Assembly (NCBI GenBank): GCA_965370295.1
Contig: CBDUSO010000005.1
Span: 7,580-71,579, forward strand
DNA from: an uncultured bacterium
GTDB taxonomy: Bacteria > Caldisericota > Caldisericia > JAAYUI01
Direction: 5' to 3'
DNA length: 64,000 nucleotides
In this document: positions 45,013-50,984 of the stretch, one piece after another
How the letters are laid out: each line of letters starts with the position of its first letter
Numbering within the stretch: position 1 is the first letter of the stretch
Translations under genes and position numbers: made by a program
The notes under the pieces: model-generated
Seen by the model: the letters and a program-made list of their open reading frames with translations, nothing else
Databases searched by the model: none
Told to the model about the DNA's origin: nothing

Positions 45013-45095
45013 ACTTAGAATTCTAACCACATTAATCAATTGGTCAAGAATTTCCTTGACAGTTTGCGTTGAAAATATACACTCGCTTGAGTTGT

Positions 45096-45415: not shown

Positions 45416-45443
45416 TTGACAACGAATATCCGTTTGCTATAAT
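45416..45443 (+). promoter_or_regulatory. Near-consensus sigma70 promoter (TTGACA, 16 nt spacer, TATAAT) driving the giant S8 peptidase gene through a ~145-nt leader
   Basis: TTGACA at 45416-45421 and TATAAT at 45438-45443 read directly. Confidence 0.55.
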
Positions 45444-45590
45444 TCTGGTTGTTTCAGAAGTAATTCTGTACACGAGAGACGTGCTGATTGAGTTTATATG
45501 GGATTTATCCCCGTCCCGGTGTCTCGCCGGTGCGTTTAGTAAAAATCCTCCTTATGGTGGCTCGCCGAGTTGCCTGGAAAGGAAAAGGTG

Positions 45591-48500
45591 ATGAGAAAGG
45601 TTAAGCTATTATCCGTATTGCTTGCCGTAATTATGGTCTTACCCATGGCGGTAGGCCTCGGAATGAGGGTCACAGCAGATGATGGCCCACTGATGGAGTT
45701 ACTAGTTTACGTAACGAATCCTGGTGACAGAAATACTTTTGAGAGTATGAAACTTCCTGATCTCACACACTATGCCTCAGGTTCAATACTCACTGAAGCC
45801 ACTGAGAGTCAGATGCTCACTCTCGCCAATAAGAATATTGAGTATATTGTAATTGGACGAGTGGACTATCGTAACATCAATGGCGTTGTGATGACTGTTG
45901 AAGACAAAAAACTCAAGATGGTAGACGAGCCCAAGGGTTGGTACGCCAAGTATGCTGATGCAACCTATGAAGGGTACGATTTTGCATATTATCTTGTTGA
46001 TTTTGTTGGACCACTCAAAAGGGCATGGATTGATAAGGTCACAAATATGGGTGGAAATATCATGGATACATACCCATTGTTTGAACAGACCTACCTGGTC
46101 CGAATGGATAAGGATAAGATTGCAGAGCTGACTCAGCTTGATTTTGTTAGAGCCACCTGCATTCACAGTCCAATTCATAAGACTAATATTTGGCCAAAAA
46201 ATGAAGACAGCACCTACATGCGTTCTGTCAACATAACAATTGCAGGAAATCTTCCCTATGCCGAACTTGAGGAGATTTCAATTCTGCTTAGGAATTTTGG
46301 ATGCAAGACTTTCCTCCAGGCAAAAATTGATAAGTTTGATGCAAACGAATCTCCACCTCGTCCAGAGGGAATGTCGGATGAAGAGTATGGGCAGATGGTT
46401 GATGTTTGGAATGAAGAGCATCAAATGGAGGGGGAGTATTACAGCTCGGCAATCGATGATGAGGGTCATACTGTAAGAGATGCTGCCCAGATAATTATGT
46501 TTGGTACTGTTGGACCAACAAAACCACTTGGTATCGAATTGAAGGATGAGGGTCCATACGAACTTGCTTTTGTAAGAGTTGTATGCCCGATGAGGTCAAT
46601 TGCAGATATTGCCCTTATCCCTCAAGTATTAGACATTGATATGTTTGCAGCTCCAGAAGCTCAGAACGATCTTGCCAACTGGCAGATTGGTTCATATGCA
46701 GCGTGGGCCGCAAACGAATCAACAGCCATTGTAACTGATCCTACCGATGCATTACCGCATGACAGACTTGATCACTTCGGTCTTCATGGTGAGTCTTTTA
46801 TTCCAACCACATGTTTTCTCCCAACAGTTTCAGATCCAAATAACCATGATCATTACAGACAGATTGTTGCAATCGTTGGTACCGGTCTTGATACCGGTGA
46901 TGTAGGCTCAACATACAGTATATCAACCCAATACTCAACAAATCCAGTTGGAGACTTTGCAGGTCGTGTGGTTGACCATCTTGCTTATGTAAGGCCAACC
47001 AACACAAATTTCTACAATACAGATCGTGATACCAGATGGCGTTGGAACCCAACAAACGGTGGTGGAACTCGAGTACCGAGATGGAATTGGGTTACAACCA
47101 GTTATTATAATGGTGCACAGGAAAACCCCGGTTTTGTTGGTTCAAGAGGGTATCCCTGGATGGATTGGGATGGGCATGAAACACACGTAACAGGTTCTGG
47201 TTTTGGTGATGGCTATTGGTCAATTGGACATACCCCTGACGACAGTTGGGATCAAGATGGACGTGAGCCATACGATCCAGGTACTGTTGGTGTTATTGCT
47301 GATGGTGTTCCCGGAACACCACACATGCCTCCAAACCTTCCTGCTCCATACGGTGTTCAACCAGCCGGATCAACACCTGCTGGTAACTGGGATTATCGAG
47401 GAGTTGCATATCGTGCAGGACTCGTTGTACAGAGAGTAACTGCGAACAATTTCTCAAGAGCTCGTGATAGTGGTCAGGGACAGAACGGTAACACAAATTA
47501 TTATTTCTGGGGCTACGCAGGTAGACCAACATATCTTGGTCTCTATCAAGTAATCGCACCGGGTCCGGGATACTGGTATCTAAGAGCACAGGATTCCATG
47601 TTCGCAATCATGAATGATGCCTACCTCGTTGGTGCACGTATTCAGGTAAACGCATGGGTTGTCCCACATCGTGGACGTTCTGCTGGTTGGGCTGCTTATC
47701 CAAATTCTTCTGGAGACAGAGAAATCAGCTATGATCCTGCAGTACACAATGCAAACGAATACAACTTCTTCTGCACTCAGATGGACAGATTCACCTGGGA
47801 ACAGAAAGACATGCTCCTGGTTCAAGCTGGAACAACAAACACACGTTTAGCAGCACCATTTATCTACGACTATGAATGGTACAATTATACACCAAGAACA
47901 TTACCAGATGGTGCCAGATGGGAACGAGATCAGAGTCCGACATATTATAGTTCTCCATGGTGTTATACCACCCCACCAACACATGATTGGTTTATGGGGA
48001 TTCCTTATCCAGTACTAACCCCCAACGTCGGTGTTTATTATCCACCAATCGGTGATACCTCAACAAACCTTCCTTTGGAGTTTAACTACTATTATCATCA
48101 GACAGTAAATTCGACTCAACCACCGACAACTCAGCAGTCATCATGGCCGATGGGAAATGCAGATGGAAAGGCAGATTTTGGAACATCCGCACTTTCACCA
48201 GCAACCGCCAAAAACCCAATTACAGTTGGTGCTTCCGAGTCATATAGAAACATTCGGACTGTTCAAACAATAATGCCAACCAACCCAACTGGTGGACCAA
48301 CCCCTCCTGTTGCTACAAACAGGGGACCTTGGACATATGGAAATGCTTATTCAGAAGTGGATCATATCAGTTGGTTTCCAGCTGAACCTCTCTTCTCAGA
48401 TAATACTGCAAACTCAGATTCACCTTACACAACCGATAACAATGGTGGCACGCTTCATGAGAGTGATTGGTGGCTTGGTGAAACAAATGGTGGCACATTC

Positions 48501-49733
48501 GGATACAGCCAACCAATACCAATAACAACCGGTTACGGTCAAGTTGCTGCATTCTCAGGAAGAGGACCAACACCAGACCTCGATTACTCACATGGTGATC
48601 CAGAACCCTCAACTTGGGAAACAGCTGGAAGATACAAACCAGATATCGTTGCTCCTGGTACTCAGATCATGTCCTCCGCTTCATATCTTACACTTCAAGA
48701 GATAGGTTATTATGATCCAACCACAAATGGCAGACGTTATACCGGAAACAACTATAATGGTCAAAGACAAGTCCAAGCTGGTGAGCAGGGTGGACCATAC
48801 CTAGGCAGACACACATCAACTGATAGCCCAACCGGTCGTGCTGATGGCAATATGTATAAACACTATGCACTCATGGAAGGCACATCTTGTGCAACCGGTT
48901 TTGTTGCTGGTGCTGCTGCTGTCACAAGACAGTTCTATGAAAACAGGGGACTCTATATGTATCCAAATCCTTCCTCTGCTCTCATCAAAGCAACCTTAAT
49001 CCATGGAGCAAGAAACCTCGGTGGACAACCTGGTTATGATGCTCAGGCACCAGGTGCAGGATACGGTGCATGGGAATGGCTCTCAGCCAAACCAAGCTAT
49101 AGTCAAGGCTTCGGAAGACTCGACATAAAGAGATCTCTATACCCAGATCCACCAACCTACACACTTTTTGAAGATCATGATAGTGGTATCACAACCGGTG
49201 AAAAACATTATTTCTACTATGATGTCACCGACAACACTGTCCCATTTGAAGCAACTCTTACTTACATCGATATGCCAAAACTTCCAAACCCACAGGTAGC
49301 ACTCGCAAATGACCTTGATCTCATTGTCATTGACCCAGGCGGAACAGAGTATCATGGTAACATCTATACAACCGACCCACACATTGACCAGCACACAAAC
49401 AAGTATGAATCTTGGGGTCGTACATCGGCTGCAAACCCAGGTGGAACCAACTTCGACAGAAGAAATAATGTTGAACGCGTTGTTATCCCACCAAACCAGG
49501 TTAAAGAGGGTCGCTGGACAATATCAATATCCGGTGCTCGCGTAGAACAGTCTTCCACAAACATTCCACAGCTCTATGCGTTCCTTGTTTCTGGTGGAAA
49601 CCTTGCTGTTGCCGTTGCTCCAGCTCCAGAAGTTCCCGCACTCACACCAATGTCACTCCTCCTCGTTATCCTTGGACTCATAGGAGTCGGTGCATTCTTT
49701 ATTATCAGAAAAAAGGCAATGATTGTTGCATAA
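45591..49733 (+). CDS. Giant secreted subtilisin-like serine peptidase (S8 family) with large insertions and C-terminal PEP-CTERM-like sorting signal
   Basis: Signal peptide. Asp box VAIVGTGLDTGD, His box GHETHVTGSG, Ser box MEGTSCATGFVAGAAAV. C-terminus PEVPALTP + 21-aa hydrophobic helix + RKK (tripartite sorting signal). ATG at 45591 with GGAAAGGAAAAGG RBS; the long ORF starts at an upstream TTG. Confidence 0.75.
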   Translation: MRKVKLLSVLLAVIMVLPMAVGLGMRVTADDGPLMELLVYVTNPGDRNTFESMKLPDLTHYASGSILTEATESQMLTLANKNIEYIVIGRVDYRNINGVVMTVEDKKLKMVDEPKGWYAKYADATYEGYDFAYYLVDFVGPLKRAWIDKVTNMGGNIMDTYPLFEQTYLVRMDKDKIAELTQLDFVRATCIHSPIHKTNIWPKNEDSTYMRSVNITIAGNLPYAELEEISILLRNFGCKTFLQAKIDKFDANESPPRPEGMSDEEYGQMVDVWNEEHQMEGEYYSSAIDDEGHTVRDAAQIIMFGTVGPTKPLGIELKDEGPYELAFVRVVCPMRSIADIALIPQVLDIDMFAAPEAQNDLANWQIGSYAAWAANESTAIVTDPTDALPHDRLDHFGLHGESFIPTTCFLPTVSDPNNHDHYRQIVAIVGTGLDTGDVGSTYSISTQYSTNPVGDFAGRVVDHLAYVRPTNTNFYNTDRDTRWRWNPTNGGGTRVPRWNWVTTSYYNGAQENPGFVGSRGYPWMDWDGHETHVTGSGFGDGYWSIGHTPDDSWDQDGREPYDPGTVGVIADGVPGTPHMPPNLPAPYGVQPAGSTPAGNWDYRGVAYRAGLVVQRVTANNFSRARDSGQGQNGNTNYYFWGYAGRPTYLGLYQVIAPGPGYWYLRAQDSMFAIMNDAYLVGARIQVNAWVVPHRGRSAGWAAYPNSSGDREISYDPAVHNANEYNFFCTQMDRFTWEQKDMLLVQAGTTNTRLAAPFIYDYEWYNYTPRTLPDGARWERDQSPTYYSSPWCYTTPPTHDWFMGIPYPVLTPNVGVYYPPIGDTSTNLPLEFNYYYHQTVNSTQPPTTQQSSWPMGNADGKADFGTSALSPATAKNPITVGASESYRNIRTVQTIMPTNPTGGPTPPVATNRGPWTYGNAYSEVDHISWFPAEPLFSDNTANSDSPYTTDNNGGTLHESDWWLGETNGGTFGYSQPIPITTGYGQVAAFSGRGPTPDLDYSHGDPEPSTWETAGRYKPDIVAPGTQIMSSASYLTLQEIGYYDPTTNGRRYTGNNYNGQRQVQAGEQGGPYLGRHTSTDSPTGRADGNMYKHYALMEGTSCATGFVAGAAAVTRQFYENRGLYMYPNPSSALIKATLIHGARNLGGQPGYDAQAPGAGYGAWEWLSAKPSYSQGFGRLDIKRSLYPDPPTYTLFEDHDSGITTGEKHYFYYDVTDNTVPFEATLTYIDMPKLPNPQVALANDLDLIVIDPGGTEYHGNIYTTDPHIDQHTNKYESWGRTSAANPGGTNFDRRNNVERVVIPPNQVKEGRWTISISGARVEQSSTNIPQLYAFLVSGGNLAVAVAPAPEVPALTPMSLLLVILGLIGVGAFFIIRKKAMIVA

Positions 49734-49788
49734 CAAGCTAACAGTGGAATATGTTAGCTAGACAGAGTCATTGATAAGAAATAAAAAA

Positions 49789-49817
49789 GGGAGTCTTTTA
49801 CGAGACTCCCTTTTTTT
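49789..49817 (+). terminator. Rho-independent terminator after S8 peptidase gene
   Basis: GGGAGTCT TTTAC GAGACTCCC followed by T7. Confidence 0.6.
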
Positions 49818-49888
49818 GTTGTCCTTGCAATTTATAAGGATTTTCTACACAATGTGTGGGGTTAGAAGCATTTAGTAAAAGGTGAAAT

Positions 49889-50491
49889 ATGAGCAACTTC
49901 GTTGAGAAAACTATAGACAACATAAGACAGTATAAATCCGTAATATTATGGATTATTTTCAGTGTATTGATAGCAATTGTACTGCAGATAATCACACACA
50001 TGAATATACCAACCCTGAACGTAATGGGGGTTCGTGAGGTATACCTGAATCCGATGCAAAAGGGTTTGACCTATGCTGTGAGTTTCCCGCTTATTGGAAT
50101 AATGAAAGTGTTTGGTGTTACGGCAAGTTTTGAATCGGTATTTGGTGGGATGAATGGAGCTTTTATAAATCTCAGCGGATTCAGGATGGAAGTAATTTAT
50201 GAGTGTACTGGAATTTATGCTTGGATAGTTTATTCAGCAGCAGTTCTTGCTTACCCGACAGGAAATTATCTAAAAAATATCTGGGGATTCTTGATTGGAT
50301 TCCCCGCAATATACATCGTTAATTTGTTCAGATTCATCATTCTTGGGCTCGTTGGTGCATACTGGCCAAATGCGTTTGATTTCATACATGCCTATCTGTG
50401 GCAACTAATTATGATCGGTTTCTTGATATTGCTTTTCTGGATATTTGTTTCAAAGGTTGTTAAAGAAGCACCACCAAAAAAGACCAAGTAA
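49889..50491 (+). CDS. Exosortase/archaeosortase-family transpeptidase, minimal ~200-aa form
   Basis: Polytopic. Conserved Cys in EC-T-G context (YECTGIYAW, C106) and Arg in N-x-x-R context (IVNLFRF, R148), ~42 residues apart as in characterised exosortase/archaeosortase active sites. Confidence 0.65.
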   Translation: MSNFVEKTIDNIRQYKSVILWIIFSVLIAIVLQIITHMNIPTLNVMGVREVYLNPMQKGLTYAVSFPLIGIMKVFGVTASFESVFGGMNGAFINLSGFRMEVIYECTGIYAWIVYSAAVLAYPTGNYLKNIWGFLIGFPAIYIVNLFRFIILGLVGAYWPNAFDFIHAYLWQLIMIGFLILLFWIFVSKVVKEAPPKKTK

Positions 50492-50495
50492 ACAC

Positions 50496-50984
50496 AAGAT
50501 GACCACAAGATCAGCGTTTATTTTAAGAATTTCTGTAACGACAGTAGTTGTATTCACGCTTTGGACGCTGGTTGCAAAATGGTATGCGTTATTGGTTGAC
50601 TCTGCCGTAAGTGGGATGATTTGGAATATTGGTTTTTATGTTGAAAGATCATCAGGTGTGGAAACATCACTTCTTAGTCCGTTGATACCGTTCATAATAT
50701 TAATGATCGGAACTTGGGGTGTCGAATTTATCTATAGAGATAGAAAACTAAACTACAAATTGTTGCTGTGGTTTATTTTTATCTGTCTGATGCTCTTGGG
50801 TTTTACAATCCTTGGGCAGTACCTGGCTGTTTATATGGCAGTTTCAAACACCTTTTCACAAACAATGTTGAACATGACAAGCTTCTTTATCGCAACGGTT
50901 CCATTGCTTGTTCCCGTTGTTGCATGGTATGGCTTGTCAAAAGAAAAACTGAACCAAATAATGTCAAAAAAACCTGCAAAGTAA
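50496..50984 (+). CDS. Small polytopic membrane protein, candidate exosortase-system-associated partner
   Basis: Start chosen at MTTRSAF, just after the exosortase stop. 4 TM helices. Adjacent, same strand, no intervening terminator. Confidence 0.4.
   Translation, partial: KMTTRSAFILRISVTTVVVFTLWTLVAKWYALLVDSAVSGMIWNIGFYVERSSGVETSLLSPLIPFIILMIGTWGVEFIYRDRKLNYKLLLWFIFICLMLLGFTILGQYLAVYMAVSNTFSQTMLNMTSFFIATVPLLVPVVAWYGLSKEKLNQIMSKKPAK

Follow-up and report, generated by a model that had tools for sequence, protein, structure and literature searches.

Do three neighbouring genes in an uncultured Caldisericota bacterium form a sorting system of their own, in which one enzyme serves one surface protein? 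The question is raised by a stretch of 64,000 nucleotides (GTDB lineage Bacteria; Caldisericota; Caldisericia; JAAYUI01; assembly GCA_965370295.1, contig CBDUSO010000005.1, positions 7,580 to 71,579 of the forward strand), which as a whole we call the window. An earlier note, made from the sequence alone, had described a very large subtilase-like (peptidase family S8) protein with an exosortase-type C-terminal signal, a small exosortase-like protein and a small membrane protein, and had proposed that they form a module dedicated to a single surface protease. The three open reading frames (ORFs) are consecutive on the plus strand, flanked by prfA (minus strand, ends at 45039) on one side and pyrE (minus strand, from 50991) on the other:

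45591..49733, plus strand: cargo gene; its product is a secreted subtilase-like (S8) protein of 1380 aa that ends in a sorting tail (ORF, Pfam, orthologues)
49889..50491, plus strand: mini exosortase/archaeosortase-family enzyme of 200 aa (TIGR04178, invariant residues)
50499..50984, plus strand: partner of 161 aa, a four-helix membrane protein whose family is unnamed (hhalign, fusions, AlphaFold2 model)

We consider it likely that this module is a dedicated C-terminal protein-sorting system made up of the S8-like cargo, a mini-sortase and a four-helix partner. The range inspected was the 64-kb window and flanks of at most 20 kb for each related locus. Scanning a single genome per species gave 18 loci (16 in Caldisericota metagenome-assembled genomes (MAGs), one in a Nanoarchaeota MAG and one in an unclassified bacterium), and a word-indexed protein search gave eight sortase relatives, one of them named as from a Caldisericia bacterium. 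No second copy of the sortase or of the partner was found within the window.

Judged from its sequence, the 200-aa protein is an exosortase/archaeosortase-family enzyme, as had been proposed. It scores 53.7 bits with TIGR04178, the exosortase/archaeosortase signature (cutoff 23), and its NCBIfam matches are exclusively to exosortase or archaeosortase subfamilies (12 out of 12), which rules out a CPBP/CAAX protease, named in the earlier note as the case that would refute the assignment, or another unrelated family. The Cys and Arg that the note had picked out are found at the expected spacing, together with a His:

50204-50206, plus strand: Cys106 (ECTG), invariant in alignment A1
50330-50332, plus strand: Arg148 (NLFR), invariant in alignment A1
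50387-50389, plus strand: His167 (IHAYLW), invariant in alignment A1

An alignment of nine sequences, reaching down to about 50% identity, shows no change at any of the three positions; the ECTG, R and H motifs can still be recognised in relatives at 25-43% identity and in two proteins in which sortase and partner are fused (see below). A Cys-Arg-His catalytic triad has been inferred for the exosortase/archaeosortase family (Haft 2023 preprint), and Cys173 and Arg214 of the archaeosortase ArtA are needed for activity (PMC9263693); the Cys106-Arg148 spacing is 42 residues, compared to 41 in ArtA. The AlphaFold2 model of the enzyme (pLDDT, the predicted local distance difference test, 74.1) contains five long hydrophobic helices and a short beta region, as in a polytopic integral membrane protein.

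The enzyme clade looks like a subtype outside every curated subfamily. The models tried all score below their cutoffs on the window enzyme (bits/cutoff: ArtB (TIGR04144) 88.6/150, XrtH (TIGR04177) 57.8/86, XrtX 50/170), and the ArtB model gives 49-119 bits among its relatives. A precomputed PF09721 match is present on all eight sortase relatives. Annotation pipelines already give the enzyme a generic label, and JGI lists P0003, P0005 and P0007 as 'archaeosortase B (VPXXXP-CTERM-specific)'.

The second element of the module is the tail of the cargo, which ends in AVAPAPEVPALTP-MSLLLVILGLIGVGAFFII-RKK-AMIVA (residue-to-base mapping verified) and is divided as follows:

49620..49649, plus strand: signature motif P-A-P-E-V-P-A-L-T-P (orthologue alignment)
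49650..49706, plus strand: hydrophobic helix MSLLLVILGLIGVGAFFII, with G1367, F1369 and F1370 invariant
49707..49730, plus strand: basic cluster RKK and the last five residues AMIVA (sequence, orthologue alignment)

The 1380-aa ORF with its motif, helix and basic tail is present as the earlier note described it, and the tail is conserved in eight orthologues. The core common to the clade is P-x-P-[EQ]-V-P, in which P1344, P1346, V1348 and P1349 are invariant; the helix end G-x-F-F and the basic cluster are also kept, at whole-protein identities of about 51-77%. Since core, helix end and basic cluster are conserved in such diverged orthologues, the tail is not a chance feature. The note had found no exact fit of the motif to a known variant; this needs correcting, as VPALTP literally fits VPxxxP and aligns from position 1 of the VPXXXP-CTERM model, although the curated model does not recognise the tail. 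A literal VPxxxP occurs in L001/L012 as well as in the window, and is missing from L004, L006 and L007. The residues found at the position of the second Pro across orthologues are P, P, L, T and T, so the pattern, though VPALTP fits it to the letter, does not hold across the clade. We also considered the tail as a Loki-CTERM, which we rejected (19.8 bits against a cutoff of 19.9), as the match spans positions 7-24 of the model, where it covers chiefly the helix and basic part and little of the signature motif. With IPTL-CTERM (TIGR04174, cutoff 20.5), the best tail tested gives 11 bits. A 41-column tail profile searched against 5.8 billion proteins returned 502 candidates, none with E <=10, and this search is uninformative because the known orthologues were not reported either.

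The third element is the partner, a small hydrophobic protein. The earlier note had started it at the TTG at 50445; the N-termini of the orthologues favour the ATG at 50499, 7 nt past the sortase stop, which gives 161 aa. Its AlphaFold2 model is a four-helix bundle (pLDDT 85.6), in agreement with the small four-helix neighbour described in the note, and we take it to be a membrane protein on the basis of this model. The partner matched no family in Pfam and NCBIfam, and a structure search with the model gave no specific match. Members of the family are 'hypothetical' wherever they are named, with the exception of one JGI 'DMT-like permease'. Using an exhaustive HMMER search of 1.84 billion cluster representatives, we were able to identify 32 members of the partner family, two of which (P0053 and P0062) are natural fusions in which a sortase makes up the N-terminal half and the partner domain the C-terminal one. 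These two fusions tie the membrane partner to the sorting system, and the partner probably acts in complex with the sortase. A metagenome scan seeded with the partner gave one confirmed locus.

The partners of the window's clade (clade 1) and of a second Caldisericota clade (clade 2) are homologous (hhalign probability 96%, E 4.4e-9, 140 columns), and in L033 a bona fide XrtH (96.4 bits, cutoff 86) has a partner homologue (P0048) as its immediate downstream neighbour. XrtH has a catalogued neighbour of its own, NF041730 ('exosortase H-associated membrane protein', cutoff 35). The window partner has no match to NF041730 and no partner reaches its cutoff, while sub-threshold colinear matches are seen in the archaeal partner of L017 (16.1 bits) and among distant members (22.0, 18.0 and 13.9 bits); NF041730 is the top or sole sub-threshold match in six out of 10 distant partner relatives. 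A remote homology between the two families is thus probable, though unproven. We rejected the idea that the partner is a copy of the sortase that has diverged, or a piece missing from it (hhalign probability 0.3%). A search of a plasmid collection for annotated XrtH with a partner turned up XrtM alone. Three distant partners (P0052, P0049 and P0046) show weak full-length matches to pacearchaeosortase/ArtE (at most 19.3 bits, E 1e-3), which may reflect composition or a very remote common origin. The fusion P0053 (residues ~322-342) and the stand-alone partner P0051 (~215-235) have a common C-terminal CPxCG...GILDHI+xVH segment, which resembles a small zinc-binding extension on the cytoplasmic side.

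The gene order is conserved. Wherever the DNA suffices, the clade-1 block consists of the S8-like protein (1337-1390 aa), a sortase of about 200 aa (48-96% identity to the window enzyme) and a 157-173 aa partner, with prfA and pyrE on either side; the cargo orthologues share about 51-77% identity with the window protein and occupy the same position in all clade-1 loci. The sortase on the complete Caldisericia chromosome OY771555.1 shows 77% identity, and genes of the P0001/P0020 type show 96% identity to those of the window. In clade 2, the sortases are 25-43% identical to the window enzyme (164-181 aa) and are followed by a membrane protein of 153-177 aa. The clade-2 cargo, directly upstream of the pair, is a protein of 1200-1400 aa with fn3 as its sole Pfam domain and a KTPxFDxWG-helix-KKK tail, and BLAST of this protein against the window S8 protein found no similarity. 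Looking up loci from the partner gave the same arrangement in L029 and L031 as in other clade-2 loci. Beyond Caldisericota, the pair lies downstream of a 719-aa beta-helix protein with a DVPGLSLSG-helix tail in the Nanoarchaeota MAG (L017). The fusion P0053 is located two bases 3' of a cohesin-domain protein with a Thr/Pro-rich linker, ending in PTPIPTVSVWIVLLIIIVVALLRR (PTPIPTV-helix-RR). The gene downstream of the fusion P0062 encodes a canonical 750-aa S8 protease ending in ...VPSVPALSPLGIAGTAGLLIAGVGRVTRSRRRRS (VPSVPALSP-helix-RSRRRR). The host of the latter has 59% G+C, and no specific similarity of its S8 protein to the window S8 protein was found, so a nearly identical signal, VPAL[ST]P, recurs independently beside the same kind of enzyme.

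Dedicated one-to-one systems have been recognised by consecutive genes for enzyme and target (Haft 2023 preprint). A cargo gene adjoins the pair in every clade-1 locus, in 11 of the 13 informative clade-2 loci, and in L017, L032 and L035, which matches this published description, and each of the three recurrent tail types is paired with its own cargo family. The partner accompanies the sortase in nearly every inspected locus, one of them archaeal. Taken together, these arrangements point to the sortase-partner pair as the conserved core, and to the cargo as exchangeable. The dedicated module proposed in the earlier note is thus supported both by the clade-1 order of cargo, sortase and partner and by homologous pairs beside other cargos elsewhere.

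Each Caldisericota genome among L010-L027 was matched with a clade-1 (S8) or a clade-2 (fn3) module and never both, using search patterns that fit both; the two may stand in for each other in a single envelope function. Downstream of the clade-2 block lies the gene for a protein of about 2200 aa whose C-terminus contains Glucodextran_B and Cu_amine_oxidN1 domains (L016 10844-17545; L029 8550-15131; L031 8545-15144; also L018-L026), and upstream of the block are conserved genes for proteins of about 155 aa (DUF4330-like) and about 275 aa. The region as a whole resembles a larger envelope operon. In L030 (7197-8462), the sortase is cut to a 111-aa fragment and a DUF4258/DUF2283 pair, which looks like a toxin-antitoxin module, is inserted before the partner gene; this lineage seems to be losing the module.

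What is the cargo itself? It matches PF00082 (Peptidase_S8) with 51.1 bits (gathering cutoff 21.8; the C-terminal part of the model is aligned), and the nearest solved structure is the KP-43 subtilase (1WMD), to which the motif matches are colinear. The S8 core is interrupted by very large insertions, and about 400 N-terminal residues are without any match. An alternative start (TTG at 45570) would give 1387 aa rather than the 1380 aa from the ATG. The positions of interest are:

45591..45677, plus strand: Sec-type signal peptide MRKVKLLSVLLAVIMVLPMAVGLGMRVTA, then DD (read from the sequence; strongly conserved in orthologues; cleavage site judged by eye)
46878..46880, plus strand: Gly430 at the catalytic Asp position (VAIV-G-TGLD versus VAVA-D-TGLD, Asp30, in KP-43)
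47175-47177, plus strand: His529, conserved, paired with KP-43 His68 (alignment to 1WMD)
48156-48158, plus strand: oxyanion Asn856 (Ser instead in two orthologues)
48885-48887, plus strand: Ser1099, conserved, paired with KP-43 Ser255 (alignment to 1WMD)

The residue at the catalytic Asp position is Gly in all five aligned orthologues (the window protein and four others), so the cargo lacks the Asp of the Asp-His-Ser triad that Peptidase S8 requires, and is doubtful as an active protease for this reason. It may be a pseudo-protease or have a non-canonical active site; a Ser-His dyad or a substitute acidic residue is possible. The label 'surface protease' in the earlier note may therefore be mistaken.

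The expression signals of the locus are conserved as well:

45416..45443, plus strand: predicted cargo promoter TTGACA-16 nt-TATAAT with a TG extension (12/12 consensus matches)
45444..45590, plus strand: cargo 5' leader of about 147 nt, with conserved blocks GAGAGACGTGCTGATTGAGTTT and CCGGTG..CGCCGGTGCGTT; the ATG is closely preceded by a Shine-Dalgarno sequence, AAGGTG
49783..49826, plus strand: 15-bp G+C-rich hairpin with a T-run in the cargo-sortase intergenic region, read as a terminator or attenuator (folding)

In nine out of nine clade-1 loci the cargo start has a perfect 12/12 promoter 155-179 nt upstream, which suggests that the cargo is abundant and made from a very strong promoter. 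The missing Asp, the insertions, the unmatched N-terminus and the consensus promoter all fit a structural, abundant surface protein, and suggest a subtilase fold that was turned to this use. Each of the seven clade-1 intergenic regions that were folded has a hairpin with a T-run at this position, with stem sequences that are all different, and two clade-2 loci have one too; a structure kept without its sequence argues for a functional terminator or attenuator. With such an element, the enzyme and partner would be made in small amounts, by read-through or from a weak promoter, and the cargo in large amounts. A Shine-Dalgarno sequence (AAGGTGA) is located 5' of the sortase ATG, and the partner is probably translationally coupled to the sortase.

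The leader blocks are strongly conserved in the window, L010, L011 and L012, and a long-range helix is possible, which is invariant and so without covariation; the consensus fold from these four sequences is weak evidence. A search of the leader against Rfam found no known RNA family. The subgroup of L013, L014, L015, L006 and L007 has a different conserved leader.

Several observations weigh against a dedicated sorting module. The window enzyme reaches no curated subfamily cutoff and is just sub-threshold with PF09721 (24.2 versus 25.7). All curated sorting-domain models are failed by the window tail, including VPXXXP-CTERM (TIGR04143, cutoff 30), with which the window tail gives 9.9-11.6 bits and the best orthologue 17.5. 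The wider synteny from prfA to pyrE is common to all clade-1 loci, so that the adjacency of the genes could be shared ancestry, and the argument therefore leans on the distant relatives. Among these, two clade-2 loci (L028 and L030) contain the pair without an upstream cargo, and three small proteins with an [IV]PEF-helix-KKRKK tail (PEF-CTERM-like) are encoded around the pair in the Nanoarchaeota locus (L017 4618-5124, 5328-5969 and 9936-10409, minus strand), such that not all relatives may be one-to-one and there may be several cargos there. Finally, the export and cleavage of the cargo, its anchoring to an acceptor, the role of the partner and the single cargo are inferred.

These points bear on three other explanations of the locus. 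The sortase and partner could process several scattered proteins, the S8-like protein being merely the cargo that happens to be encoded next to them. Most described exosortase/archaeosortase systems do have many substrates (for ArtA, one to 52 per genome) (PMC6098224), three further proteins with tails lie near the Nanoarchaeota pair, and the inspection covered 64 kb of the genome and about 20 kb per related locus. Within that range, however, the only tripartite tail on a secreted protein adjoins the sortase: no second motif-helix-basic tail is found on any large, apparently secreted protein in the window, as the earlier note had observed, nor is there one other than the sortase-adjacent tail on a secreted protein in 547 kb of (largely syntenic) Caldisericota loci. 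The three recurrent tail types, each with its own cargo family, are also what is seen in one-to-one systems (Haft 2023 preprint), and we think a one-to-many system unlikely here; a single cargo is consistent with everything seen in the inspected loci. It is also conceivable that cleavage of the tail by the sortase sets the S8-like protein free as a soluble enzyme in the medium, since even for ArtA it is unresolved whether the enzyme is a transpeptidase or a simple endopeptidase (Haft 2023 preprint) and subtilases are commonly secreted enzymes. Release of this sort seems quite unlikely to us, because the absence of the catalytic Asp from all orthologues speaks against a scavenging protease, and the product of ArtA remains attached through a lipid (PMC9263693).

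We give still less credence to the tail as a permanent, uncleaved membrane anchor, with the sortase-like protein and its partner doing other (polysaccharide or lipid) envelope work, which we regard as very improbable. In its favour, the tail fails the curated models, the genes may not be co-transcribed given the hairpin and T-run between cargo and sortase, and the sortase activity is predicted from the sequence. A plain anchor, however, needs neither a conserved Pro-rich motif abutting the helix nor invariant Gly and Phe within it; the catalytic Cys, Arg and His are invariant; and unrelated cargos with tripartite tails lie beside homologous pairs in distant lineages, including a second S8 protein with VPAL[ST]P.

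Under the preferred reading, that of a dedicated sorting module, the cargo would be made from its very strong promoter and exported through the N-terminal signal peptide by the Sec route. The C-terminal helix would then tether it in the cytoplasmic membrane, with the RKK cluster inside, and the sortase, probably complexed with the four-helix partner, would recognise P-x-P-[EQ]-V-P(-A-L-T-P) abutting the helix. Cys106 would attack, and the site formed by Cys106, Arg148 and His167 would remove the helix at the outer face of the membrane. By analogy to archaeosortase A, the new C-terminus would be joined to a membrane lipid or an envelope acceptor, holding the cargo on the cell surface. The conserved hairpin and T-run would keep enzyme and partner far below the level of the cargo.

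The host is relevant to this analogy. Caldiserica are missing genes for lipopolysaccharide (LPS) (PMC5007114) and have been treated alongside monoderm transitions (bioRxiv 10.1101/2021.05.31.446380); the Caldisericia cell is probably bounded by one membrane. This makes the archaeal single-membrane model the better analogy, in agreement with archaeosortase B being the best-matching subfamily model. We found no paper connecting Caldisericota with exosortase/archaeosortase-type enzymes in a literature search. A broader picture, which we offer only tentatively, is that the sortase and partner represent an unrecognised two-subunit (sometimes fused) class of mini-sortases in Caldisericota, other bacteria and DPANN archaea, each copy dedicated to one neighbouring surface protein. 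Here the sole cargo would be a catalytically degenerate subtilase serving as the major, very highly expressed S-layer-like envelope protein, in a bacterium that lacks LPS and probably has one membrane. C-terminal processing and attachment to a lipid in the archaeal style would anchor this protein.

Exosortase/archaeosortase enzymes with C-terminal tripartite signals, including dedicated pairs, are already known. What is new here is an enzyme clade that belongs to no curated subfamily, with a tail that belongs to no curated sorting-domain model; an uncatalogued partner family, fused to the sortase in two proteins and found in both domains of life; and a cargo that is a conserved Asp-less subtilase. 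ArtA of Haloferax is the single enzyme of this type that has been experimentally studied in depth, and bacterial exosortases are poorly characterised. With a single cargo, enzyme and partner, such a module would make an unusually clean model for studying the recognition motif, transpeptidation and the acceptor, and the partner family points to a missing component of exosortase/archaeosortase sorting machines. For Caldisericota, a poorly known phylum without LPS genes, the locus probably reveals a main envelope protein and the way it is attached.

Among known systems, ArtB with VPXXXP-CTERM is close in several respects: its model gives the window enzyme the highest of its subfamily scores (88.6 bits, E 4e-25), the enzyme is similarly small (model length 156), and the window tail contains a literal VPxxxP. 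The window system differs in that its enzyme is far under the ArtB cutoff (150) and its tail far under that of the tail model (11.6 versus 30), its host is a bacterium rather than a methanogen or halophile, and it has an obligatory partner gene and a single adjacent cargo. The XrtH/IPTL-CTERM/NF041730 system shares the arrangement of a small sortase followed by a small polytopic partner. Clade-2 enzymes come near to XrtH (64-83.3 bits versus the cutoff of 86), the L033 enzyme, with its partner-family neighbour, alone passes (96.4 bits), and the PTPIPTV and KTPxFDxWG tails of relatives resemble IPTL. The window enzyme itself, in contrast, scores 57.8 bits, its partner has no NF041730 match and its tail motif is not IPTL.

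ArtA with PGF-CTERM (Haloferax volcanii) belongs to the same superfamily, with the conserved Cys and Arg at nearly the same distance (41 versus 42 residues); its cargo is likewise a large secreted surface protein with a tripartite tail, and in both cases there is probably a single membrane. ArtA removes the helix and a lipid is then attached to the cargo (PMC9263693). It is larger than the window enzyme (model length 271; the ArtA model scores 31 bits on the window enzyme versus a cutoff of 75), recognises a PGF motif, and works with PssA/PssD instead of a small adjacent partner. Finally, MprA with GlyGly-CTERM (TIGR03867) and rhombosortase resembles the window system in having a protease-family cargo, a tripartite tail and a membrane-embedded processing enzyme, but that enzyme is an unrelated rhomboid serine protease, and the motif is unrelated as well.

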